Shown here one piece after another: positions 38,998 through 63,475 of a stretch of DNA of 64,000 nucleotides; position 1 is the first letter of the stretch, and every line of letters starts with the position of its first letter. This stretch comes from Candidatus Anstonellales archaeon (GTDB lineage: Archaea; Micrarchaeota; Micrarchaeia; Anstonellales; J096): NCBI GenBank assembly GCA_038890615.1, contig JAWAFI010000001.1:130611-194610 (forward strand). The letters run 5' to 3'. The position numbers and the translations under genes were made by a program. Below the pieces are notes generated by a model. The model did no database searches. It saw only the letters and a list, made by a program, of their open reading frames with translations, and was not told the DNA's origin.

Positions 38998-39605
38998 AGG
39001 ATACCACCTAATATCCCCCCGATGAGAGCGCAGACCATGTTTGAGGTTTCCTTTGTACCAAGCCCTTTTTCCTCAAATATTCCTGCAATGCTATCAGCCA
39101 TGTTGCCAATGAAGCCGGCAATAGTTATTGCGACCATTTGCTCTGCATTTGCTGAAAAGATAAAATGTGCTGAAAGGCCTATTGCTGCTGCTCCTGCAAG
39201 CGAGGCAAGCGTGCCAAGCAAGCTTACTGCTCCGCTCTTGCCTGCTCTTGTCTTCTTCGCTTTAAGCAAGCCGCTCAAGTCATAGGGGCTCTTGTCCATT
39301 ACCCCTATTTCTGAGGCAAACTTGTCAGAGGTTATTGCAGCTATGCTTGAGGCAAAAATAGGCCACTGGAAGAATGGGGAGAGCACAGCAAATATTGTTG
39401 GGAAGAGCCCATTTGAAGCGACATTCTTCCAACCCCTGTCATATTCATATAGGCCTGCCTCTTTCTTTTCCCAGTAGCCGTATTTTGTGACTGCTATTGA
39501 AAGAAGCAAGAAGATGAGCATAAGGAAGAGGTATGAAGAGCCTGCAAAAAAGTAGATGATGACCCCTATTAGAACAGCACAGGCGATCCCTGCAAAATCA
39601 AGCAT
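38994..39605 (-). CDS. DUF92 (TMEM19-like) membrane protein
   Basis: RGWKNVASNG, SDKFASEIG, SGAVSLLGT, DSIAG. Confidence 0.9.
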   Translation of the reverse strand: MLDFAGIACAVLIGVIIYFFAGSSYLFLMLIFLLLSIAVTKYGYWEKKEAGLYEYDRGWKNVASNGLFPTIFAVLSPFFQWPIFASSIAAITSDKFASEIGVMDKSPYDLSGLLKAKKTRAGKSGAVSLLGTLASLAGAAAIGLSAHFIFSANAEQMVAITIAGFIGNMADSIAGIFEEKGLGTKETSNMVCALIGGILGGIL

Positions 39606-40564
39606 CAGCATATCTCCACCTTTTTGCCTCCTATCCTTATATCCCTGCTTACGAACTCCTTTATAATCCTTGCAGATGTTAGAAGATGGCTGGAATGCTC
39701 ACTTACTGAGTAGGACGTAGCTCCTTTGGAAAGCGATGCATAAGGAAGGAGCTGGTCTGCCAAATAAGTATCAACCTCATATTGGTTTTCTTTGCTAAAT
39801 GATTCAAATGCTTCTTCTGCCAATTCTTCTGCCCTTTTTCCTTTCTCCCCTACAGAGCAAACACCTGTTGAGCCGCTCCATATGAGCAAAGAATTGCCTA
39901 TGCTTTCCTTTGTTTGGATTATGCGGATTCCCTCAATTCCTTTCTCAACAAGCACTTTTTTTTCCCTCAAGGCTATGGAAAAATCAAGGTTATCAACCCT
40001 TATTATTGCTTTTGTTTTGGATTTAGGCCAGAAGGAATTCCCTTTTGGCTGTGCAGGCTTAACCAAAAATCGCATTATGCCCCCTCCTTCTGGGTAGTAG
40101 CCGGGCTTAAGCAATGAGGATGAACAGCTTATGCCGAAGAAGGACAGGGAAGGAAGAAAAACCTCTGAGAAATATTCGTAAGTGGGGGCCCACTTAACAT
40201 GAGTCCCGCCTATGATTTCAACCTCGCTGGGCTTCTCTGCATAAATAAGTATAGGGATTAGAGTTTGCGCAACAAGCACAGCTGAGCCAGCAGTGCCTAT
40301 GTTGATCTTATACTTACCACCGACTATTTTCTTGGGGATGAATTCAAGAGTTGAGCTGCCTGGTTCAGCACCTTTCACTTCTGCACGTGAAACTTTCCTT
40401 GCAGCGCTTACTGCTGCCAAATGCTGGGGGGCTAATCCAGGGTTAGGCCTGTTGGCTCTTATATTTTCTAGTCTAAATGGCTTCTTGGTTATTGAAGATA
40501 AGGAGAGGCAGAGCCTTAATATCTGCCCTCCTCCTTCCATGGCAGATCCATCAATAAAAAGCAT
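39605..40564 (-). CDS. rtcA: RNA 3'-terminal phosphate cyclase
   Basis: IDGSAMEGGGQILR, IRANRPNPGLAPQH, GGTHV, GYYPEGGG, YLADQL, SHLLT. Confidence 0.95.
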   Translation of the reverse strand: MLFIDGSAMEGGGQILRLCLSLSSITKKPFRLENIRANRPNPGLAPQHLAAVSAARKVSRAEVKGAEPGSSTLEFIPKKIVGGKYKINIGTAGSAVLVAQTLIPILIYAEKPSEVEIIGGTHVKWAPTYEYFSEVFLPSLSFFGISCSSSLLKPGYYPEGGGIMRFLVKPAQPKGNSFWPKSKTKAIIRVDNLDFSIALREKKVLVEKGIEGIRIIQTKESIGNSLLIWSGSTGVCSVGEKGKRAEELAEEAFESFSKENQYEVDTYLADQLLPYASLSKGATSYSVSEHSSHLLTSARIIKEFVSRDIRIGGKKVEIC

Positions 40565-40565
40565 A

Positions 40566-40638
40566 AGCCCTGAGAGGGAATTGAACCCTCGGCCTCTTCC
40601 TTACCAAGGAAGCGCTCTGCCTACTGAGCTATCAGGGC
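40566..40638 (-). tRNA. tRNA-Thr(GGT)
   Basis: GCCCTGA/TCAGGGC acceptor, CTTCC-TTGGTAA-GGAAG anticodon arm, GAGGG-TTCAATT-CCCTC T arm. Confidence 0.96.
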
Positions 40639-40678
40639 TTCTTTGTAGATTTTTGGGTTAAGGGTTTTTATTGTTTTG

Positions 40679-41227
40679 CTATTCTAATACATCTGCTTCA
40701 AAGCCAGCCTCCCCTAAAAGCTTGGCAACCTCCTTGTGGTCTGCCTCGCCGTAGAATTTTGATTCTCCTGAAAGGAGGAATTTTGGCTTACTGAGGTTCC
40801 CTGAAAACTCCAAAAAGCCACCCCTGACAAAGCGAATGGGCTCTTTTATCAGTCCTTCTATTTTATCAGCAACTTCCTTATGTGCATTGCAGGAAGGGAA
40901 GGCTGCTATAACCCTTTGCCCTGAATCTGTGACCCCTGCCACGTATCTTACTGCTTTATTTTTCTGGGCAACTATGGCTACCTTAACTAAAGTGTTGGAG
41001 GAAAAAAGGCCAATGAAGCCGTTGTACTTCCATGTCGCTTGCTCTGCCTTTATGCTTTCCTTTACCATCTCTTCTAACACAGAATCCTTGTAACTTTGTA
41101 TGCTTTGCCTTACCCTACAATACAGGGACTCTTCAGAAACATTAAATAAGTGCTTTTTTAGTTTATCATAGAGAAGCTTGACCCTATCTGATACTGGTGG
41201 CTTAACCTTGGGTTTTTGGATTTTCAT
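40679..41227 (-). CDS. PHPT1/Janus/Ocnus-like protein, paralog 1
   Basis: VRYVAG...NAHKEV...RGGFL...LSGESKFYGEADH. Confidence 0.65.
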   Translation of the reverse strand: MKIQKPKVKPPVSDRVKLLYDKLKKHLFNVSEESLYCRVRQSIQSYKDSVLEEMVKESIKAEQATWKYNGFIGLFSSNTLVKVAIVAQKNKAVRYVAGVTDSGQRVIAAFPSCNAHKEVADKIEGLIKEPIRFVRGGFLEFSGNLSKPKFLLSGESKFYGEADHKEVAKLLGEAGFEADVLE

Positions 41228-41270
41228 AATGAAGCATATAAAGATAGGTGTTAAAAACTTTTAGTTTGGC

Positions 41271-41876
41271 TTAACCTGAAACCCTTGCTTTAATTCCTGC
41301 TGAAGTCAAAATGCCAACAACCTCTTTGTGGTCTGCTTCTCCGTATTTTTGGGATTCCCCAAAAACTTTTAGCTGGGGATTTTCAATGTCTCCTTCAACC
41401 TTAATCTTCCCCCCTTTTATTGAGCTGAGCTTCTCCTTCAATAAATCCTCAACAGCTTCAACTATGTCAGCATGGTATTCTAAAGGAAGGGCAGCAACAA
41501 CACGCTTTCCTGAAGAGGTGGTTCCAACAATATACTTGATAACAGAGGTTGAGGGAAGAATGAGTAGCACAGAATAATTTGCTGATGAGGAGGAGGAGAA
41601 AAGGCAGTTGTTGTAAACCTCCTTAAGGTGAGTTGAAGTCTCCATTTTGTTTAGAAGGTCTGTTACGGAAAAAATATCATAATCAGGTACTTTCATTCCC
41701 TCTAATTCGTTCAGCCTTTTTTCTATTTCAGGTGGTGCTTTGCCACCAAAAAAAGAATGGCGAAGTTCCTCATTTATAAGCTTTGGGAGTTCTTTATGCT
41801 TCTTAAGCAATAAACTCTCTGTCTCTGCCTTCTTTATTCCGTTCAGCACATTTGAAAGAGTTGATACATCAACCAT
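41271..41876 (-). CDS. PHPT1/Janus/Ocnus-like protein, paralog 2
   Basis: IKYIVG...EYHADIV...KGGKI...VFGESQKYGEADH. Confidence 0.72.
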   Translation of the reverse strand: MVDVSTLSNVLNGIKKAETESLLLKKHKELPKLINEELRHSFFGGKAPPEIEKRLNELEGMKVPDYDIFSVTDLLNKMETSTHLKEVYNNCLFSSSSSANYSVLLILPSTSVIKYIVGTTSSGKRVVAALPLEYHADIVEAVEDLLKEKLSSIKGGKIKVEGDIENPQLKVFGESQKYGEADHKEVVGILTSAGIKARVSG

Positions 41877-41946
41877 GTTTAGATAACTCCTTACTTGCTT
41901 ATAAATGCTTTTGCACTGAATTTTGAAAAATAGAAAACTGTCTTAT

Positions 41947-42393
41947 CTAGATATCAAAAAAGCAATCTATACCGATCCTTCTAAGCAATGAACCAACAGC
42001 TATGTGGTCTGCCTTTCCATAACGCATTGATTCGCCAAACAGCTTAACCCTTACCTCATCTCCACTTTTCCTAACCTCTATAAAGCCGCCCCTTATATTT
42101 TCCAAGGCTGTATTGGAATATTTTTCAAATGTCTCAACGATGTCTTTGTGAAACTCAAGGGGGAGCGCAAGGATCACCTTAGTTTTATTGCCATCAACAA
42201 TAGCATCACCTATTATATATTTCGTCTTTTGTTCTTCCCTAAGGGCAAGCATGACAAAAAGGTCAGAAGTTGAAAATTCAAAGGTTAAAAGCCCTTTTTC
42301 TTTTTTCCATTTTACATTTTTTTGACCATCCAAGAGTGGCTCGCCTCCCTCTTTGCACCTTTTTGGCAGAGAATGCTCCTCCTTTAGTTCCAT
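41947..42393 (-). CDS. PHPT1/Janus/Ocnus-like protein, paralog 3
   Basis: TKYIIG...EFHKDIV...RGGFI...LFGESMRYGKADH; SD GGTGAG. Confidence 0.68.
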   Translation of the reverse strand: MELKEEHSLPKRCKEGGEPLLDGQKNVKWKKEKGLLTFEFSTSDLFVMLALREEQKTKYIIGDAIVDGNKTKVILALPLEFHKDIVETFEKYSNTALENIRGGFIEVRKSGDEVRVKLFGESMRYGKADHIAVGSLLRRIGIDCFFDI

Positions 42394-42403
42394 CTTCTCA
42401 CCA

Positions 42404-42486
42404 AGCCCCAGATGGGGATTGAACCCATGACCTACCGCTTTCCTTGAGCATACAAGGCGGTCGCTCTGCCGCTGAGCTACTGGGGC
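42404..42486 (-). tRNA. tRNA-Thr(TGT) with 11-nt intron at 37/38 (about 42440-42450)
   Basis: GCCCCAG/CTGGGGC acceptor; ACCGC/GCGGT anticodon stem with 18-nt loop CTTGTA-TGCTCAAGGAA-A; ATGGG-TTCAATC-CCCAT T arm. Confidence 0.92.
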
Positions 42487-42491
42487 TAATA

Positions 42492-43742
42492 TTATGGAAT
42501 CATTAAGGGTTTTAAAGCGTTTTCCTCTTCAGCTGATAAATAGCGCAACTCGTGAAAGAATGGGTGGGAGATCGATGAGTATTCAAGAATGGCTCTTTTT
42601 ATCATTGATATCTCCTTTTCATTCCAAGCAGGCAATGAAAGTTTGGTTGGTTTAATTGAATCGTTCAAGATCCTTGCCTTATTGAAAGGGGTAGTCTTGA
42701 TTCGCGAGGTATAAAGGGCTTTATCAAGAAAATTCATATCTGCTTCTAAAAGGCTTAGCAAATCGTTGTTGTGGAGGAAAGCCCACTCTATCTTTTTAAA
42801 ATCTTCCTTAAGAAGCCTAAACCCTTCCTCTCTCAATAGGAGCGGGTTTTCCAATAGGGAAAGAATTCTCTTGCAGAAGCTCATAAATCTAGAAATATCA
42901 GGAAGCGAATGGTAAAGAAAGGCTAATGTTTCTGAAGCAATTAAAGTTTCTCTCTTTAAGTAGTGGATTTTTGCGGCAAGCTTTGGATCAAAGAAGAGAG
43001 CCAGACGAAAGGATTCTTTGGGCTCCATATCAACAGAATGAAAGAGATCAAGGTAATGGTTTTTGAGTTCCTTTAAGTATGAAAGGCATTTCTCGTTTGG
43101 ATTTGCCAAAGAAATGCCTTCAGACCAGAGTCTAATTAATTCCTTTGCATTCTGCACCGATAGAATTTGCGGAGGTGGTGGAGAGCGGTAAGCATCAGAA
43201 GAAAGCATCAGGTAGGACAATAAGGTAGAAGGCACTATTGAACTATTTTTTAAAGTTAGATAAACGAAATGGTTGTTAGCATATCTTAATACAATATGCC
43301 ATAAATCTTCATAAGCTTTTTTAGAGAAGTAATCTTCGGCTATCATATTTTTGTAATAAAGAAGTTCATCTGCACCACAGATATCAATATTAGAACTACC
43401 TATCCTTTCTTCAAGCAAAGGAGGCAAAAATACTTTTTTGATTTTTATCTCTTCATTTGATGAACCTGCCAGCAATCCCAACCTTTCCAAAAAAGACAGC
43501 TCATAAGGATCCAAAAAATTAGAGAGATGGATGGAAAAAGAAAAACCTTTTCCTTTGCTTGCCCTTCTTATTGCCTTTACACATTCATTCTCTGCTATGT
43601 TTTTTAGGATACTTAAAGAATTGCTTTTAGGCAAGGCATCTAAGTATTCCTTGTATGGTGCAAATGAAAGAATAGCAGAAAGCCTTTTTAAACACTCTGT
43701 TGGTTTTTGTATTTGCTTCATCTCCAGCTTCAGCGCTGCCAT
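42492..43742 (-). CDS. Orphan protein (416 aa)
   Basis: Long AT-rich ORF co-oriented with the MoxR-VWA operon. Confidence 0.7.
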   Translation of the reverse strand: MAALKLEMKQIQKPTECLKRLSAILSFAPYKEYLDALPKSNSLSILKNIAENECVKAIRRASKGKGFSFSIHLSNFLDPYELSFLERLGLLAGSSNEEIKIKKVFLPPLLEERIGSSNIDICGADELLYYKNMIAEDYFSKKAYEDLWHIVLRYANNHFVYLTLKNSSIVPSTLLSYLMLSSDAYRSPPPPQILSVQNAKELIRLWSEGISLANPNEKCLSYLKELKNHYLDLFHSVDMEPKESFRLALFFDPKLAAKIHYLKRETLIASETLAFLYHSLPDISRFMSFCKRILSLLENPLLLREEGFRLLKEDFKKIEWAFLHNNDLLSLLEADMNFLDKALYTSRIKTTPFNKARILNDSIKPTKLSLPAWNEKEISMIKRAILEYSSISHPFFHELRYLSAEEENALKPLMIP

Positions 43743-43750
43743 AAAATCCC

Positions 43751-44572
43751 CTACAGTTTAGGTTCCTTCATACCGTAATATCTACATGCATCTTTTATAA
43801 GCTCTTTTATCTTTTCTTTTTTCTCTTTTGAATCCAGTTCCCCCTCCAGGTTAGGAAGCTCCTCTATCACTAGCACAAAAAGCTGTTCTTCCAGGCTTTT
43901 TAAGTCTACTAATCCTTCAATATAGCAGTGGAGGAGCAGCTCCTTATTATTCTTTACCAGTTGGTTGAAAACCTCTTTATGATCCTTTCCAAATATAGAT
44001 GGAAGGAGCTTTATTAGAGCCCTTACTTCACTATCAGCAAGGGAAGAGATGCGCACATCGGAGAGTATTTTAGAGAGTGCTTTCTTCCCGTTTCCACCAA
44101 TCAGAGGGTTGTTTGGATCTAAGGCATTGATGCATAAGCTAAGGGCAAAAAGCTTAAGGTCTTCATCACTTTTGTAATAACTTGAAGCCTCGCTAAATTT
44201 CAAAAGGACTGCTGAGATGTCTTCTTCCAAAAGCTGCCTAAATTCCTCTTTCTTATAGTTTGATCTTATAAAATCTGCTATGTACTCTGCTGTGTATAAA
44301 GAAGATTTTAAAAACAGTTTAACTACTTCTCTTAGAGGCATCTTTAATCCCCTTGCCTTTATCTCTGAGAAAAATTCCCTAGCTTCATAAGCATAGAGTT
44401 CATCTATTTCCTTAAACTGTGCCAAAAGCTCATCATCGCTCATCAAGGTAAAGCTCTTCCTGCCCCAATGGTCATACTTGCTGAAGCCATCAAAGCCATA
44501 ATTTTTCCACTTCTTCTTCTCAAACTCTGTTATTGGCTTTTCTTTTCCATTTTTCTCTTTTGAACCTTTCAT
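43751..44572 (-). CDS. Orphan helical protein (273 aa)
   Basis: Starts 1 nt after the VWA gene stop. Confidence 0.72.
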   Translation of the reverse strand: MKGSKEKNGKEKPITEFEKKKWKNYGFDGFSKYDHWGRKSFTLMSDDELLAQFKEIDELYAYEAREFFSEIKARGLKMPLREVVKLFLKSSLYTAEYIADFIRSNYKKEEFRQLLEEDISAVLLKFSEASSYYKSDEDLKLFALSLCINALDPNNPLIGGNGKKALSKILSDVRISSLADSEVRALIKLLPSIFGKDHKEVFNQLVKNNKELLLHCYIEGLVDLKSLEEQLFVLVIEELPNLEGELDSKEKKEKIKELIKDACRYYGMKEPKL

Positions 44573-44573
44573 T

Positions 44574-47399
44574 CTATACCACCCCCCGTGCCCATTTTTC
44601 TATAAGCTTTGCTATATCATAGACCAAAGTGTTTAGATTTTCGTTGACAATTAAGTTATTATTATACATCTCTTTGAATACACCTATACTGCTGCAAGAA
44701 ACCACCACGCTTATTACTTCTATGTCTTTTGCCCTTGCCTCCTCAACTGCTTCCTTTACATCTTCTAGGGCTGGTTTGTTCATATAATCAGTATCATCAT
44801 GGCATGGTGAGCCATCGCTCACGATTATTAAAAGCTTTTTACCCTCTTTTTCTTCAAGCTTTTTCAGAGCATGCCTTATTGCTGCACCATCCCTGTTTGC
44901 AATGCCATTCATTAAGCCTAGTTCATCAGGAACTTGCAGAATAGGAACTCTCTCAATCGTTTCCGAGAAACTTTTTATTGGGAAGTAGTATGTAAGGTTT
45001 TTACCCTCTATTGAAACAAATGCTGAAATCTCTGAATCAATCAACGGAAGGCCATTAAGGGCTTTTGAAAGCACATACAATGCTTTACCCTCACGCTTAA
45101 TAGTGCCGCCGCGGGTTGAACCACTCAAATCAAAAAGCACAATGACATTTGCGCTTTGCCTTTCTTCCTTTCTTGTCATCCATATTTCAGGCTCTTCTAT
45201 TTCACCTTTTTCCTTCTCAACCTTCCATTTAAGGTATGCATTTATGTCTAATCTCTTGCCTCTTGAGCTAAGTGAATAATCAATATTCTCCTCAACTGCT
45301 TCTTCAAATGCCTTTTTTATAGGATTAACCAAAGAATCTAGTTCGGTGCTTGAGAATTTTTTTGTCTGGGGGTAGGGCATCTCTTTTACTATGTGGGTGA
45401 ATTTGTGGGTTTTGTAAACGTATAGAGCGCCTTTCTTCTTAAATGAGGTATCTAAGGCTGATTCAACCTCTATCTCCAACTCTTTCAAATGTTTCTCTTC
45501 TTTAGGGGTAAGAAGGTCCAACCCTTTTTTCTTACGATCATCCTCTTCCTTGCTTGCTTTCCTTATCCTATCAATTATCTCCTGCTTTTCCTTCTCTCCC
45601 TCGACAACCTGTGGATTAAGCTCATCGAGGGATCTTTGGGAAGAAGGTTTAGGAAGGTCATAGCCGCCTTCCTCCTCTTTCTTTTTCTCGCCCGAAGATT
45701 CTGGTTCATGTTCTTTGGCTTCATCCTTTTCCTCCTCTTCTGATGATTTAGATGGCTGACCATCATATGGTGGTTCTCCTTTATATCTCCCTACACAAAC
45801 TCTTGGCCCCTCTCCTTCTGGAGATTGCTTTCCTAATTGCGGGGGTGGCGGAATGTCAATAACCGGGGGTTTTTCAACTGAAGGTTCTTTCTCTCTTTTA
45901 GGAGGCACTGGAAAGTCGCCTTTTCTTTGATCATCCTTAGAAGGAGGTTTTTTAATTTGTGGGGGCAGTTTTTCCTTGATCTTCATATTAAGCCTTCTTT
46001 CTATAAGGTTTTTGTGGTATTTTTCAGCAATTATTTTCATTATCTTCATTGATGTATTAATGCTAACAGAAAGGTCAGCAGCTGGTTCCTTAACATCTTC
46101 AAGCAGCCTCAAAACCTCGGTAAGGTTTTTTGCAGTATCTGGGTGTATGGTTCCCTTTGCTCTTGGGGAGAAAGAAAGTTGTATAAGTGCTTCTAGGAAG
46201 TTGGTCAGATTGTCCTCTGGCTTTATGGGAGGCCTCTCGTTTATAACCTTCTCTACATACATTACGTAGTCATGCTCAAACCCAGGAAACCTAGTAAGCC
46301 CCAGACAGTCAATCCTAACATCCTCAACTATATTCAGGATCAACTTGAACAATTCAGGGTCTGGCATTTTATGAAGGAGATCATTGTATGTATCAAATTT
46401 TTTGTCGCTCCCAACCTTAAGCAAGCCTAAAAGATTTTTAGTTGAATTTTCTTTATAACTAACTTCTTTTTCTGTTTCTACCTCACGGCCTTTGTCCATC
46501 TCATTTTTTAATTTTTTAACCTCTTCATCAATCCTTTTCTTTATAAACACCATTAGGTGAAGAAGTTCGCTGTCAACCTTGCTTTTATCAAGTATGAAAC
46601 TGCCATCAGCAGATATGTGCATTGACTCATGCAAGGCAAGTATCCTAAAAGCAGCTATGTTGCTCAACCTGTCAGGAAATCTGTCAAGAACCTCAGGAAG
46701 ACAAACATAAGGAGGGTAAGCGCAAGGGGTTTCATCTTTTTTTAAGGGCCTTATGGTTGGGTCATAAAGCCCCCTAAGGACAACCCTAGCCACCCTCTGG
46801 AGCCTATCAGATATTTCATCGATTTTAACTGCCCTTTTCTCTTTTGATTTTATGAAACTATCTCTTATTGATTCTTTTTCTAAAAGAACCTTTTCCATTG
46901 CATTGTCATCTAAAGAAGAGGTTGACTTAAGCCAATCCCAAATAGGGCAAAATGGGTCTTTTATAAGCACCTCGCAAACAAGAGAGCAAAGAGCAGACGA
47001 GCTGGAAAACTTATTATTTGAGAAAACATTGTCCATTGTGCTCAGCAGCTCTTCTGCCCTGTGGAAGGGAAGGCCTTTTGAAAGCAGTTCTGGCAGCTCC
47101 TTTGAAAAGAAGCTTATGGTGGCTAGATTGGACTGCTTGTTTAAAAGATTGAGGGCTTTTACTATTTCCTCCTTTTCAAGGTTTTTGTAGGAGGAGGGGT
47201 TTGATTCTGCGAGGCTTACTATCAGCTTCCCTTTTTTCGTTGAGCAAAAACCTTCTTTCTTGAGCTCTTCCAATGCTGCCAAAACCTTTGATTCATAGCC
47301 AACCTCTCTATAAAGCCTCTCATAGTAGCCCCAATCCTTATAATAAGAGGGAGGATTATAAGATAAAGCATCTCTATTTTTGTGTGCCACTTTAATCAC
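44574..47399 (-). CDS. NorD/CbbO/CobT-like VWA protein with N-terminal HExxH metallopeptidase-like domain
   Basis: ALHESMH...LNIVEDVRID; Pro/Glu-rich linker; GKRLDI; MIDAS DLSGST, NRDGAAIRHA, IIVSDGSP. Confidence 0.88.
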   Translation of the reverse strand: MIKVAHKNRDALSYNPPSYYKDWGYYERLYREVGYESKVLAALEELKKEGFCSTKKGKLIVSLAESNPSSYKNLEKEEIVKALNLLNKQSNLATISFFSKELPELLSKGLPFHRAEELLSTMDNVFSNNKFSSSSALCSLVCEVLIKDPFCPIWDWLKSTSSLDDNAMEKVLLEKESIRDSFIKSKEKRAVKIDEISDRLQRVARVVLRGLYDPTIRPLKKDETPCAYPPYVCLPEVLDRFPDRLSNIAAFRILALHESMHISADGSFILDKSKVDSELLHLMVFIKKRIDEEVKKLKNEMDKGREVETEKEVSYKENSTKNLLGLLKVGSDKKFDTYNDLLHKMPDPELFKLILNIVEDVRIDCLGLTRFPGFEHDYVMYVEKVINERPPIKPEDNLTNFLEALIQLSFSPRAKGTIHPDTAKNLTEVLRLLEDVKEPAADLSVSINTSMKIMKIIAEKYHKNLIERRLNMKIKEKLPPQIKKPPSKDDQRKGDFPVPPKREKEPSVEKPPVIDIPPPPQLGKQSPEGEGPRVCVGRYKGEPPYDGQPSKSSEEEEKDEAKEHEPESSGEKKKEEEGGYDLPKPSSQRSLDELNPQVVEGEKEKQEIIDRIRKASKEEDDRKKKGLDLLTPKEEKHLKELEIEVESALDTSFKKKGALYVYKTHKFTHIVKEMPYPQTKKFSSTELDSLVNPIKKAFEEAVEENIDYSLSSRGKRLDINAYLKWKVEKEKGEIEEPEIWMTRKEERQSANVIVLFDLSGSTRGGTIKREGKALYVLSKALNGLPLIDSEISAFVSIEGKNLTYYFPIKSFSETIERVPILQVPDELGLMNGIANRDGAAIRHALKKLEEKEGKKLLIIVSDGSPCHDDTDYMNKPALEDVKEAVEEARAKDIEVISVVVSCSSIGVFKEMYNNNLIVNENLNTLVYDIAKLIEKWARGVV

Positions 47400-48381
47400 C
47401 TTTCTTTTTTGTTTTTTCTTCGCCTCCAGCAGCTGGAACTACTATATCGCTCAGTATGTTCTCTATTGTTTCTCCTGTGTCAAGCACAGCCGCCAAAACA
47501 ACCCTAAATGCATCCTTTACAGACAGCTTGTGGTTCTGGATCAGCTCAGCAGCAAGAACGCTTAGCCTTGTTCCTGGAAGCTCCTTGAAATCCATGCTTG
47601 CTCCCTCTCTAAGTTCTGTCATCACCCTTACCACCAAGGAAGCTATCTCTGTGTTTATGCCGTTTCCTTTTACAATGTCCTTCTCAACCTCTGGCGGGGG
47701 ATATTCAAGCACCGCGCATATGAACCTTTGCTCAAATGCAGGAGGAAGCTTCTTTTTTGTGTATTTTGAGCCTGGGTTGTAGGAAGCAACAAGCATAAAT
47801 TTGTCATCTGGTCTTATGAGCTCCCCTGTATCAGGAACCACTACAAATCTCCTGTGGTCTGTTATTGAGTAAAGCATGCTCAGCGTCTCGCTGTCCACAT
47901 TAACCACTTCATCAAAATAGAATATAGCCCCCCCAACTATTGCTTTTACAAGAAGCCCATCCTCCCAAGCAAAGTAATCGCCAAATGGGATGAGCTTTCC
48001 AACCACATCAGTTGAGTTTATGTTGTTGTGGCTAAGCACTGTAACAAGAGGTAGATCTTCCTTTTGGGCCATATGCTGGAGGAATGTCGTCTTGCCAACC
48101 CCTGTCGGGCCCTTTATCAAAAGCGGCTTCTTAAGGGCTTTGCACGCTTTGAATAAAGGCATCAGGTTTCCATAGTCAACATAAAAGATGTGTTCTTTCT
48201 CCTTGAATGCTTCAAGCTCCTCTAATATGGCTTTCTTATTTCTTACTGGAAGGATTATCATTTTGCCTGTCTGCTCTGCAACCCTTATCTTCCCCTGCTG
48301 CTCAAGCCTCATCAAGGCCTCTGAAAGAGGCAGTTTTCCTTTAAATGAATTCAAATCCTCTGCAACTGTTTTTTCCACCAT
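47392..48381 (-). CDS. MoxR-family AAA+ ATPase (CbbQ/NirQ/NorQ type)
   Basis: KGPTGVGKT, WEDGLL, YFDEV, SITDHRR, LVASYNPG, QRF, GTRL; start re-placed at ATG 48381. Confidence 0.92.
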   Translation of the reverse strand: MVEKTVAEDLNSFKGKLPLSEALMRLEQQGKIRVAEQTGKMIILPVRNKKAILEELEAFKEKEHIFYVDYGNLMPLFKACKALKKPLLIKGPTGVGKTTFLQHMAQKEDLPLVTVLSHNNINSTDVVGKLIPFGDYFAWEDGLLVKAIVGGAIFYFDEVVNVDSETLSMLYSITDHRRFVVVPDTGELIRPDDKFMLVASYNPGSKYTKKKLPPAFEQRFICAVLEYPPPEVEKDIVKGNGINTEIASLVVRVMTELREGASMDFKELPGTRLSVLAAELIQNHKLSVKDAFRVVLAAVLDTGETIENILSDIVVPAAGGEEKTKKKGD

Positions 48382-48474
48382 ATTTACCACGATAATACTA
48401 CTCAAAAATAGTATTAAATACTTCAGATTGAAAATTTTAAAAAAAATAAATCTTAAAGAAAAATTTAAAATAAA

Positions 48475-49680
48475 TTAAAATAGTATATAGCGTTTTGAGA
48501 TTATGTCATAGGCGTCATTCCTGTAATAGCGCTCTCTCAAAAGCTCCTTCAGGCGCTCAAGCTGCTTTTGGTCGCTCTTTAGGTGCGCCTCAATGAGAAG
48601 CCATTTGGCAGGCACATTGCCCTCTCCGTAGAGCTGCTTGAGCTCCTCAATTGCTTCCAATGCCTTATCTATCTTGCCCAACAGGAAAAGCATCCTTATG
48701 TAAGTGCCAAGGAAGCTAATTGAGCCCTTGTATTCGCCCCTAAAGCTATCCATAAGGGCTTTCATATCGCTTATCTGCTGAGGCGCCAAATCATCTACTA
48801 AGTAGGAAGTATTCGTTAGGGCTGTGAGGAGGAGGCCTTTTTCAATATCCATCTTATTATAGGAGAGCAGGTTATCCTTTTCTAAAGGATAATCGTATAT
48901 TTCATTAGTTAGGGAATTGCCCACTGCTATATGCTGGTTTTCCTCAAGGAGGAGCACGTGGTCAAAAAGCAAGTCAAAAAGGTGGTTTGGCAAATAGCCG
49001 CCGTGGAATGTATCAACTTCAGCGAATATAAGCGAGCGGTCTGGCCATTCACCTTTGAAAAAAAGGAAAAGCCCATCCAATAGCTTGCCATCTGGGGACA
49101 GTTTATGCTCAAACTCAATCTCTTCTCCCTTCAAGAAAAGGCTGAGTTGTTTTAGAGCCTTAAGGACCTTTTCCCTTCTTAAGGAATTGATGGGCTCAAG
49201 GAAAAAAAGATTGGAAGGGTTGTATTCCATTGAATAGAGAGCTGCAATGCATTGGGCTGTGCCAGCGCAGTTTATGTCTACCTCAAAACCTGCTTTTCCT
49301 GTATAGAAGAAAGGCAGCCCTTTTATCGCCTCCATAAAAAGACCAAAATACGAATCAACTGCTGAAGTCATTCCACTAAACATTGCCGCAAAGCTTTGGT
49401 CTTCTATATACTCTTCGCCAAACAAGGTTTCTGACTTAGAAAGCGTTTCCCAGCTAATCGGGCCTTTGACTTCCTTCCTAAGCTTCAGGAAGAATTCCTC
49501 TTTTTTGGCTTTTTTCAAGAATGCCTTTGGTACTGCCTCAACCCTTCTTTCTTCAGGGCAAAGCATAAACAGGGCTAGGTTTTTCTGTGGGGTGTCTTTT
49601 AGGTGAGGTATGGTCTTGCTTTTCAGCTTGAATATGTAGGCCCCTCTTTTTTCGACTATTGAATCTACAAACCCTTTCAT
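48475..49680 (-). CDS. Hypothetical protein with putative transglutaminase/papain-like Cys-His-Asp triad and TPR-like C-terminus
   Basis: INCAGTAQCIAAL...DHVLLL...IYD; LGKIDKALEAIEEL. Confidence 0.55.
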   Translation of the reverse strand: MKGFVDSIVEKRGAYIFKLKSKTIPHLKDTPQKNLALFMLCPEERRVEAVPKAFLKKAKKEEFFLKLRKEVKGPISWETLSKSETLFGEEYIEDQSFAAMFSGMTSAVDSYFGLFMEAIKGLPFFYTGKAGFEVDINCAGTAQCIAALYSMEYNPSNLFFLEPINSLRREKVLKALKQLSLFLKGEEIEFEHKLSPDGKLLDGLFLFFKGEWPDRSLIFAEVDTFHGGYLPNHLFDLLFDHVLLLEENQHIAVGNSLTNEIYDYPLEKDNLLSYNKMDIEKGLLLTALTNTSYLVDDLAPQQISDMKALMDSFRGEYKGSISFLGTYIRMLFLLGKIDKALEAIEELKQLYGEGNVPAKWLLIEAHLKSDQKQLERLKELLRERYYRNDAYDIISKRYILF

Positions 49681-61731: not shown

Positions 61732-61738
61732 GAGTGGA

Positions 61739-61832
61739 AGGGCCCGACGGGATTCGAACCCGCAACCACCTGGTAACCTCAGCTTTGGCGCTTCCGAAGC
61801 CAGGCGCGCTATCCTGGTTACGCTACGGGCCC
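61739..61832 (-). tRNA. tRNA-Arg(TCG) with 19-nt intron at 37/38 (61775-61793)
   Basis: GGGCCCG/CGGGCCC acceptor; CCTGG/CCAGG anticodon stem; BHB with CTTC/GAGG helix, bulges GG|A and TT|A, and AGC/GCT outer helix. Confidence 0.94.
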
Positions 61833-62711
61833 TGTAAGGACTTCTACTCTGTCTTTTTTAACAACCACTGTCGCCTCTGACTGCGCAACTAGCGCCCCCT
61901 TGTCCTCAACAAGCACAGGGTAGCCCTTTAGTATACCACGCTCCAGCAATTCCCTGAGCGCTGCGCTTACCAGAAGCTTTGAGTTGAACTTGTTTATTAG
62001 CCACCTTTCTGCAAAAGGTAGCTGGTGGTAGGCCTCTGCAACATGTATTATTACCATCCTTGCAGCCCTTGAGCGCACTGGAGCAGGGTTGTCAAGGCTG
62101 AAAATCTCAACAACATCCCTGTCATTTACAGTGCCTTTGCCTGTTGTAACAAACGGCTCCAAAGCAAAAACATCGCCTTCCTTGAATTGGTAGGGTATTG
62201 AGTTTGCTATGTTGGGCACTTCTATGCCTGCGTGAAGCGTCCCATCGCTTATCATATGGCCTGTAAGGTTTGAGATCGGCTTGAAGCCTGCTTCCTTTAT
62301 GCAGTCCTCAACCTTAGAGCCCACATCCCCAACAGAAACACCTTCTTTTATGGAATCTATTGCCACCTTAAGCGCAGAGTTGGCTGCATCTATCATATCT
62401 TGGTGCTCCCCGGTCAAGTCTATTGTTACTGCAGTGTCCACCAAGCCATCCTTGTACTTGACCCCAAAATCAACCTTAAGCAGGCCTGCCTCAAGGTTCC
62501 TTGTGTCTTTGTATTCAGGGGTGTCATGGGCGCTTACTTCGTTCATGCCAAGGTTAACAGGGAATGCAGGCTCTGCCCCTGCCTCCCTTATCATCTGCTC
62601 AATCGTTTCAGCTATGTCAAGGTAGCTCTCCCCTTCCATGGCAAGCTTTCCTACCTGCCCTTTTATTTTGGCTGCTATTGCACCAGCAGCTCTGAGGTTT
62701 TCTATGTCCAT
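61818..62711 (-). CDS. map: Methionine aminopeptidase type II
   Basis: AFPVN, AHDTP, KVDFGV, DTAVT, NLTGH, LHAG, ALEPF, LPFAERW, AQSEAT. Confidence 0.96.
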   Translation of the reverse strand: MDIENLRAAGAIAAKIKGQVGKLAMEGESYLDIAETIEQMIREAGAEPAFPVNLGMNEVSAHDTPEYKDTRNLEAGLLKVDFGVKYKDGLVDTAVTIDLTGEHQDMIDAANSALKVAIDSIKEGVSVGDVGSKVEDCIKEAGFKPISNLTGHMISDGTLHAGIEVPNIANSIPYQFKEGDVFALEPFVTTGKGTVNDRDVVEIFSLDNPAPVRSRAARMVIIHVAEAYHQLPFAERWLINKFNSKLLVSAALRELLERGILKGYPVLVEDKGALVAQSEATVVVKKDRVEVLTGPVA

Positions 62712-63372: not shown

Positions 63373-63475
63373 TGGGCCGGATGGGATTTGAACCCATGAC
63401 CTACGGCTTTCTCAAGCCGATGAGATAGAACGGGCCATATAAGACCGTCGCTCTACCGTGCTGAGCTACCGGCCC
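63373..63475 (-). tRNA. tRNA-Ile(TAT) with 29-nt intron at 37/38 (63409-63437)
   Basis: GGGCCGG/CCGGCCC-A acceptor; ACGGT/GCCGT anticodon stem; loop CT-TAT-A|intron|A; BHB with CTTA/TGAG helix and GGCC/GGCT outer helix. Confidence 0.93.

Follow-up and report, generated by a model that had tools for sequence, protein, structure and literature searches.

Among protein phosphohistidine phosphatases, PHPT1 is the one studied best, and in the literature that we searched it is treated as an animal enzyme. Its Drosophila relatives, Janus-A, Janus-B and Ocnus, are encoded by closely linked paralogous genes. According to PMC4817053, the catalytic site of human PHPT1 includes Lys21, His53, Ala54, Arg78, Ser94 and Ala96, with Arg78 implicated in anchoring the substrate or stabilising the transition state. 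His53 is described in PMC11277029 as the general base of a reaction without a phospho-enzyme intermediate, and the same source reports that PHPT1 also acts on phospholysine. The activity of Ocnus is reported to require the catalytic histidine (PMC13602238), and bacterial SixA is reported to remove phosphohistidine phosphate on HPt domains, NPr and Ndk (PMC6282199, PMC7948535, PMC12934123). Here we describe three adjacent genes, par1, par2 and par3, found in a 64,000-nucleotide stretch (the window) of contig JAWAFI010000001.1 of Candidatus Anstonellales archaeon, whose genome of 845,764 bases is distributed over 7 contigs and has a completeness of 94%. The trio represents intact tandem PHPT1-family genes in a Micrarchaeota-type DPANN archaeon. 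By analogy with the human enzyme, we regard it as on balance probable that the three proteins are active P-N phosphatases that use the His-Ser machinery of PHPT1 with altered substrate anchoring.

The relationship with PHPT1 could be established for all three proteins at the sequence level. The Pfam family PF05005 (Janus/Ocnus), with a gathering cut-off of 23 bits, scored 24.2 bits for par1, 39.4 for par2 and 32.0 for par3; because all three pass this cut-off, the family resemblance is not due to chance. The domain itself was thus already known to Pfam. A PF05005 scan of the whole genome led to the same three places and to no others. When the profile of the trio's domains was compared with sequences of solved structures, PHPT1 came out on top (2ai6; E 0.0016-0.0022), the runner-up being the unrelated L24 (E 0.028). 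In the alignment with PHPT1, the invariant histidine of the trio fell on His53 and an alanine on Arg45. A word-index homologue search with par2 returned par2 alone; an exhaustive search with the trio profile over 1.84 billion representatives gave 85 matches at E <= 1e-3. Among these 85 are canonical eukaryote-type PHPT1 sequences with the pattern FKY..VRG..YHADI..GGGRI..YGYS, and PF05005 was matched by 71 of the 78 representatives that were scanned, the seven longest having been left out. Judged by sequence, the trio belongs to the Janus/Ocnus (PHPT1) family, and both the Pfam scores and the solved-structure match bear out the family identity proposed in a sequence-only reading of this DNA. 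An NCBIfam scan returned no family for the trio or for two orphan genes upstream of it.

The predicted fold points in the same direction for par1 and par2, the two proteins that were modelled. AlphaFold2 models, built from a 78-row alignment and no templates, had a predicted local distance difference test (pLDDT) score of 95.6 for par1 and 93.7 for par2, and a predicted template modelling (pTM) score of 0.88 and 0.84, respectively. In a Foldseek search of the PDB with par2, the top five matches were all PHPT1 chains (E 3e-5 to 4e-4) and the sixth had E 0.16. By VIA-align, residues 97-201 of par2 superpose on residues 6-122 of PHPT1, with Z 12.6, 12.4 and 11.6 to PHPT1 entries (root-mean-square deviation (rmsd) 2.4-2.8 over 100-101 residues) and a best non-PHPT1 Z of 5.6. 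Residues 77-182 of par1 superpose on the same part of PHPT1 with Z 12.6, 12.6 and 11.3 (rmsd 2.5-3.0, 101-102 residues; best non-PHPT1 Z 4.0), Z 12.6 being reached with both 2nmm and 2hw4 (rmsd 2.5-2.6 over 101-102 residues). The N-terminal helices of both proteins gave only weak matches to helical structures, with Z 5.6 or less. The models thus place par1 and par2 in the Janus/Ocnus (PHPT1) family by predicted fold as well. The sequence-only reading had named comparison with PHPT1 by AlphaFold and Foldseek as its test, and it survives that test because the par1 and par2 models superpose on PHPT1 (Z up to 12.6).

As that reading had also noticed, the three minus-strand open reading frames (Table 1) have a C-terminal domain in common: about 110 residues are 36-38% identical and contain 22 invariant columns in the alignment of the three. 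The strings quoted for par2 (IKYI, EYHADI, GGKI and VFGESQKYGEADH) are all present in its translation. A 48-nt DNA repeat, found once in each gene, covers the codons of the GES..YG.ADH motif, two copies being 77% and 67% identical to the reference copy (repeat search, family D2). The N-termini had been called unrelated, and this description needs some qualification. The helices of par1 match the long-form family and those of par2 a single relative (P0004), with par3 carrying only about 35 extra residues. The part directly before the core, a hairpin with a W/Y.Y.. motif, is common to the trio. In the models of par1 (63-77) and par2 (83-97) it forms an extra beta-hairpin carrying the motif W/Y.Y.G..G.F, which is also present in par3. 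The two helices of par1 fit a consensus pattern conserved in many relatives, and the three helices of par2 recur in P0004, which is 45% identical to par2 over the full length. Among the 85 representatives, 28 are long-form, 31 short, 18 have C-terminal extensions, 5 have large N-terminal extensions and 3 are of other types; according to the models, two of the three window genes, par1 and par2, have the long-form architecture.

The catalytic histidine, the Gly-Gly loop, the serine, the YG.A loop and the second histidine are present in all three window proteins, and the Ser94/S..YG.A and second-His columns are invariant across the 26 closest relatives. To characterise the family more broadly, we used 73 non-canonical domain rows, from which 4 short and 3 near-duplicate rows had been dropped, and counted 13 canonical-type rows separately. 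In the non-canonical rows the His53 position is kept in 70/73, Gly76 in 70/73, Gly77 in 73/73, Ser94 in 71/73, Lys21 in 60/73 and His102 in 51/73. The alignments agree with the earlier observation that the catalytic His, the Ser and the second His are kept and the equivalent of Arg45 is absent (Ala, Ala and Leu in par1, par2 and par3). Arg78, which was not on that list, is also missing in par1 and par3. Of the residues by which a PHPT1 orthologue might be recognised, the trio has those at Lys21, Ser94 and His102 and lacks those at Arg45 and Arg78. Going by the alignments, the three proteins are members of the Janus/Ocnus family and not PHPT1 orthologues; they belong to a distinct subfamily in which the His-Ser-glycine-loop core is conserved, Arg45 is absent from every member and Arg78 is replaced in most of them. 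The most PHPT1-like of the three is par2. Because Arg45 and Arg78 are replaced, substrate anchoring must differ from that in PHPT1.

How might such proteins work? We infer catalysis, the substrate and the role of the extension, the mechanism of catalysis by analogy with human PHPT1. The trio would hydrolyse phosphoramidate (P-N) bonds, for example those of protein phosphohistidine. The invariant histidine (H116, H135 and H82) would be the general base activating water, and the phosphate would be held by the Ser of G.S..YG.A, by the backbone amides of that loop and by the Gly-Gly loop, while the Lys or Arg that occupies the Lys21 position would add positive charge. No phospho-enzyme intermediate would be formed. 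The N-terminal extension of par1 and par2 might select partners. As to targets, the sequence-only reading had called for a check of the genome for histidine kinases. HisKA and HPt have no match in the genome, and the two matches of HATPase_c are both non-kinase proteins, GyrB and Top6B. No match to His_Phos_1/SixA was found in the genome either. The genome encodes one NDK (C1:487064-487558), one PEP-utilising (phosphoenolpyruvate-utilising) enzyme (around C1:469413), one Succ_CoA_lig-domain protein of the ADP-forming acyl-CoA synthetase type (C5:3100-4467) and a single receiver-domain protein (C1:343225-343872, 215 aa; 42-43 bits against a cut-off of 30.2). Since there is no histidine kinase or HPt match, the candidate targets would be either the phosphohistidine intermediates of the first three enzymes or a kinase-less circuit around the receiver-domain protein. 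The orphan receiver protein (also L044 4726-5370) has an intact DD...TD motif, and its gene, about 150 kb from the trio, has housekeeping neighbours (SpoU methylase, RNase HII and SRP54).

The receiver option is considered because relatives of the trio have receiver-like genes adjoining the PHPT1-like gene. We examined 21 relatives' loci outside the window, 7 of them seen for only about 1.5 kb on each side. In four of the 21 (L030, L036, L041 and L042) a receiver-like gene is the direct neighbour of the PHPT1-like gene, the two frames overlapping or sitting a few bases apart. The L036 receiver-like protein is 44% identical to the receiver protein of this genome, the L042 gene was detected by a profile built without L042, and L041 has a cluster that includes three receiver-like paralogs. 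In an alignment of the receiver-like sequences, the acidic pair and the TD/SD phospho-acceptor motif are conserved. Taken together with a genome that has a single receiver and lacks matches to HisKA, HPt and kinase-type HATPase_c, these observations might indicate that the trio and receiver domains form a histidine-kinase-independent phosphorelay, in which the PHPT1-like proteins either control a P-N phosphodonor of the receiver, be it a small molecule or a protein, or themselves carry phosphate, as HPt does, on one of their two conserved histidines. We consider such a relay quite unlikely: the receiver gene is distant from the trio and sits among housekeeping genes, 17 of the 21 loci are without a receiver-like neighbour (7 of these 17 seen for about 1.5 kb per side), and PHPT1 itself is described as acting without a phospho-enzyme intermediate (PMC11277029). 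It is nevertheless tempting to speculate that, in DPANN archaea without kinases, orphan receivers have their missing partner in the long-form PHPT1-like proteins and form with them a phospho-signalling circuit independent of histidine kinases, the trio providing its one receiver with three inputs or erasers of different tuning, doubtful as this idea is. The archaeal phosphohistidine signalling system envisaged in the sequence-only reading therefore stands only in part. The receiver gene of the genome, the adjacency in 4/21 relatives' loci and the lack of kinase-type matches speak for it, and the absence of a receiver gene beside the trio speaks against it.

Other features of the relatives' neighbourhoods are worth pointing out. 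At L041 (5353-12648 of a metagenome contig), the long-form PHPT1-like gene is accompanied by genes for several unnamed 240-345-aa proteins and for a protein with a domain that we call GFDT; APH/RIO-type kinase-like genes and a gene for a Lon-like protease border the cluster. The GFDT domain, with the motif ENG..(F/Y)GFDT.(Y/W)L, has no Pfam family. In 5 of the 85 representatives (P0029, P0040, P0060, P0080 and P0085) it follows the PHPT1 domain in a fusion protein, and it is encoded by a neighbouring gene at L031 (1755-2543) and L041 (11779-12648), the two proteins being 56% identical. One GFDT homologue is encoded in this genome (C1:46407-47837), and an Atlas search with the GFDT protein gave no clear relative (scores <0.9, TM <0.5). 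In four loci, which come from two DPANN phyla, the PHPT1-like gene has a divergently oriented gene for a TrmB-family regulator as its neighbour; the PHPT1-like gene is short-form in L035, L037 and L038 and a 696-aa fusion in L027. Neighbours at other loci include PolB, SRP54, ProRS, DTD and thymidylate kinase genes. The nine loci in the window's phylum have no common neighbour and no MoxR or VWA gene.

Several observations weigh against our interpretation of the trio as P-N phosphatases and against their proposed targets. The receiver link derives from other genomes, the gene neighbourhoods apart from it vary among the 21 relatives' loci, and no receiver, GFDT or kinase gene stands beside the trio in the window. 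Among the listed runs that contain this DNA none is of RNA, and an RNA run of the same study yielded nothing on 39000-49000 beyond tRNA-like fragments of other organisms. That the pocket would be equivalent to that of PHPT1 is deduced from alignments. Arg45 is Arg in 0/73 non-canonical rows vs 9/13 canonical ones, and the Arg78 position is Arg or Lys in 13/73 non-canonical rows and Tyr, Phe or Trp in 43/73. Because Arg78, implicated in anchoring, is Phe in par1 and par3, these two may be poor enzymes or may have a different substrate. It could even be that the trio are non-catalytic binding or adaptor pseudo-enzymes of the PHPT1 fold, whose phosphate pocket and N-terminal helices bind partners. 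Consistent with this are the absence of Arg45 in the whole non-canonical clade, the Phe of par1 and par3 together with the frequent aromatic residue at the Arg78 position, and the existence of some relatives without the catalytic His (P0054 and L024, where it is Ala). We nonetheless find pseudo-enzymes rather unlikely, as His (70/73), Ser (71/73), Gly-Gly (70 and 73/73) and YG.A are kept despite high divergence, which is the pattern expected of a working active site, and as both histidines are kept in all three window proteins. The relative without the catalytic His deserves a separate comment. It is a long-form protein (P0054; L024 8145-8801, genome G002) of the same GTDB family, with His replaced by Ala (QEFASEV) and GG by EG, and judging from these replacements it is probably an inactive family member.

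The sequence-only reading had also raised the possibility of effectors acting on host signalling. For the trio this would mean delivery into a host cell, where the proteins would erase phosphohistidine signalling of the host. The copy number is unusual, par2 and par3 have a guanine + cytosine (GC) content of 0.40, about 1 standard deviation (SD) below the genome mean of 0.443, and two-component kinases are abundant in likely hosts. DPANN archaea are moreover described as mostly episymbionts (PMC8407392). Against delivery, a Kyte-Doolittle scan revealed no signal peptide, hydrophobic N-terminus or membrane segment in the trio, the highest 19-residue mean in the first 30 windows being 0.23 or less. 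Secretion-system genes are directly beside the PHPT1-like gene in 0/21 relatives' loci, and a gene for a type IV secretion system (T4SS) pilin-like protein is about 2 kb away in L024. The genes that do adjoin the relatives are receiver-like, with products that are likely cytoplasmic. PADLOC-DB 2.0 gave no match for the trio, for the two upstream orphans or for a VWA protein encoded further upstream, and only weak generic AAA matches for the neighbouring ATPase. The effector idea thus finds no support, and we judge it most improbable. With regard to base composition, the two upstream orphans have a GC content of 0.37-0.38 and, together with par2 and par3, lie 1-2 SD below the genome mean. A dip to 0.38-0.40 extends across 42000-46000 of the window, and the GC content of the 416-aa orphan (0.368) is under the genome's 5th percentile for 600-nt windows. 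No att-like repeat of the tRNA genes on either side of the trio turned up in a repeat search.

Among DPANN archaea, the family has a sparse and scattered distribution. In the window's phylum, 8/400 other sampled genomes have a PHPT1-like match at E <= 1e-5, each with at most two copies, at separate loci. The genome studied here has exactly three and no extra degenerate copies, the next match (E 0.011) being in a repeat protein. That three copies represent an expansion is therefore supported, as no other searched genome has more than two. At E <= 0.01, PF05005 is found in 5/18 other genomes of the same GTDB family and in 0/22 genomes of other families of the same order. In a second phylum, 8/401 genomes match if two seed genomes are included, that is, 6/399 further genomes. 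Close long-form homologues occur at two loci from metagenome-assembled genomes titled Candidatus Woesearchaeota. A related-locus search with one PHPT1-like alignment returned 2 genome loci and 3 metagenome loci, and a search with another gave no confirmed locus in genome contigs. An Atlas cluster with 176 bacterial members (Thermodesulfobacteriota, 197 aa; score 0.85) is a lead that bacteria hold the family too. Where public records name the PHPT1-like relatives, they name them 'hypothetical protein', and a prokaryotic PHPT1 homologue was not described in any paper that our literature searches brought up. As for the history of the paralogs, par2 shares more identity with P0004 (58% over the domain) than with par1 and par3 (37-38%), and the identity of its 25 closest relatives to par2 is 22-45%. 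In a quick tree, par1, par2 and par3 were not grouped; a tree with the trio held together had a higher likelihood (approximately unbiased test, p-AU 0.75). The copies may have arisen by triplication in situ or may be older paralogs.

The host is archaeal, as A-type ATPase subunits, Hjc and Kae1 were identified in the window with Pfam, and the sequencing runs containing this DNA are labelled hot springs metagenome. A PHPT1-like homologue from a genome of the same GTDB order (G130) is near-identical to a protein cluster with the label Candidatus Bilamarchaeaceae, class Micrarchaeia. The trio is flanked by two tRNA genes in a very tight arrangement (Table 1). The tRNA-Gln gene begins 4 nt past the stop of the 416-aa orphan frame and ends 9 nt ahead of the par3 ATG, with GGTGAG within these 9 nt. 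On the other side, the RtcA ATG begins at the base directly after the 3' end of tRNA-Thr. This tRNA-punctuated string suggests co-transcription, with tRNA processing leading to leaderless or short-leader mRNAs. At least one tRNA gene exceeds the usual length (85 nt according to ARAGORN, 103 nt according to Rfam), which suggests introns. Two long tRNA genes, of about 95-103 nt and probably intron-containing, lie at 61735-61833 and 63373-63475; the former was given no identity by ARAGORN, and the latter was missed by ARAGORN and found by Rfam at 62.7 bits.

Both RtcA and RtcB are encoded in the genome, and the position of RtcA directly downstream of the trio, past tRNA-Thr, brings up another kind of substrate. 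The trio might hydrolyse a non-protein or nucleotide-linked phosphoramidate, such as free phosphoramidate, a phospholysine-type compound or histidine-nucleoside monophosphate (His-NMP) adducts of the RtcA/RtcB type. PHPT1 is reported to be active on phospholysine (PMC11277029), stacking on a base or ring would be conceivable for an aromatic side chain at the Arg78 position, and at L025 the homologue and RtcB are about 4 kb apart. Proximity to RtcA or RtcB is nevertheless limited to 2/22 loci, with other genes or a tRNA in between, and the thymidylate kinase neighbour of the short-form gene at L028 is a loose nucleotide hint only. Non-protein or nucleotide-linked substrates are therefore, in our view, very unlikely.

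Upstream of the trio, co-directional genes encode the two orphans, a giant VWA protein and a MoxR-type ATPase; whether these genes (42492-48405) are linked to the trio is uncertain. The 941-aa VWA protein has HESMH at residue 257 and ILNIVEDVR near residue 350. At L031, the long-form gene and the GFDT gene are followed by genes for a HEXXH protein, a VWA protein and an AAA_5 ATPase, with the same HE..H and ILNIVEDVR motifs and collinear high-scoring segment pairs (E 3e-5) to the window protein. The giant HEXXH-VWA protein is thus split into a HEXXH gene and a VWA gene in L031. A locus of the same GTDB family (G010; L056, C3 10528-15677) is syntenic with 43751-48405 of the window, with identities of 46% for the AAA_5 ATPase, 33-40% for the HEXXH-linker-VWA protein and 28% for the 273-aa orphan. 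The giant VWA protein occurs in 10/400 other genomes of the phylum. None of these 10 is among the 8 genomes with a PHPT1-like match, and the AAA-VWA-orf273 module of G010 is not followed by a PHPT1-like gene, a tRNA or RtcA, so we rejected the link between the MoxR/HEXXH/VWA genes and PHPT1 as anything beyond a weak lead. The long tail of P0026 was also considered as a relative of the window orphans or the VWA protein and showed no similarity to them.

Table 1. Features at the trio locus (window coordinates) and TrmB-like genes at relatives' loci (coordinates of the locus named). Human PHPT1 positions are given in brackets after the equivalent residues.
Feature	Positions	Strand	Description
RtcA	39605-40564		Downstream of tRNA-Thr; Pfam RTC 245 bits
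tRNA-Thr(GGT)	40565-40639	minus	Downstream flank of trio; ARAGORN and Rfam
par1	40679-41227	minus	ORF, 182 aa; helices 12-28 and 35-60, beta-hairpin 63-77, PHPT1 core 77-182
par1 residues	His codon 40880-40882	minus	R94 (Lys21), Ala (Arg45), H116 (His53), G136-G137 (Gly76-Gly77), F138 (Arg78), S156 (Ser94), H164 (His102); codons verified
par2	41271-41876	minus	ORF, 201 aa; helices 4-42, 49-59 and 68-80, beta-hairpin 83-97, core 97-201
par2 residues	His codon 41472-41474	minus	K114 (Lys21), Ala (Arg45), H135 (His53), G155-G156 (Gly76-Gly77), K157 (Arg78), S175 (Ser94), H183 (His102); codons verified
par3	41947-42393	minus	ORF, 148 aa; PHPT1-like protein, short N-terminus (~35 extra residues)
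par3 residues	His codons 42148-42150 (H82), 42004-42006 (H130)	minus	K58 (Lys21), Leu (Arg45), H82 (His53), G102-G103 (Gly76-Gly77), F104 (Arg78), S122 (Ser94), H130 (His102); codons verified for K58, H82, G103, F104 and H130, G102 and S122 counted from translation
48-nt DNA repeat	40726-40773, 41318-41365, 41994-42041		3 copies; GES..YG.ADH motif codons
tRNA-Gln(TTG)	42403-42487	minus	85 nt; upstream flank of trio; ARAGORN and Rfam
416-aa orphan	42492-43742	minus	Upstream, co-directional
273-aa orphan	43751-44572	minus	Upstream, co-directional
HEXXH-linker-VWA protein	44574-47399	minus	941 aa; Pfam VWA, CobT_C; motifs
MoxR-type AAA_5 ATPase	47392-48405	minus	Pfam AAA_5
TrmB-like gene, L027	7271-8023		
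TrmB-like gene, L035	1935-2654		
TrmB-like gene, L037	645-1358		
TrmB-like gene, L038	638-1378		

What makes these proteins of more general interest is that they represent a distinct archaeal branch of the family, with an architecture of its own, in which Arg45 has been lost everywhere and Arg78 in most members while the His-Ser core has been kept. Such a branch amounts to a natural experiment on what PHPT1 catalysis needs, and the trio offers small proteins, two of them (par1 and par2) with highly confident models, for expression. Because the organism has no detectable histidine kinase, yet genes of relatives adjoin receiver domains, the family might also provide a testable entry into the use of N-linked phosphorylation by reduced symbiotic archaea.

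In comparison with known systems, SixA (His_Phos_1), a bacterial phosphohistidine phosphatase, would be a functional analogue of the trio; it differs in its unrelated fold and mechanism. The short-form prokaryotic homologues of DPANN archaea and bacteria, unnamed or 'hypothetical' in the records, are of the same family and have no counterpart in this genome. They differ from the long form in having 110-130 aa and no N-terminal extension, and their neighbourhoods are different, for example tmk (thymidylate kinase) at L028 in Micrarchaeota. Drosophila Janus-A, Janus-B and Ocnus also belong to the same family, but these proteins of the animal testis have the canonical short form, with VRG and GGGR motifs, and the tree shows no kinship with the trio nearer than the family level. 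The closest described counterpart is human PHPT1 (2hw4, 2nmm, 2ai6). The likeness lies in PF05005, in the predicted fold of par1 and par2 over residues 6-122 (Z 11.3-12.6), and in the equivalents of His53, Gly76-Gly77, Ser94, Tyr97-Gly98, Ala100 and His102, with Lys or Arg at Lys21. In contrast to the human enzyme, to which they are about 18-26% identical, the window proteins have Ala or Leu in place of Arg45 and Phe (par1, par3) or Lys (par2) in place of Arg78; par1 and par2 carry an N-terminal extension of 75-95 residues, predicted to comprise helices and an extra beta-hairpin; and the genes reside in an archaeal host as three tandem copies.

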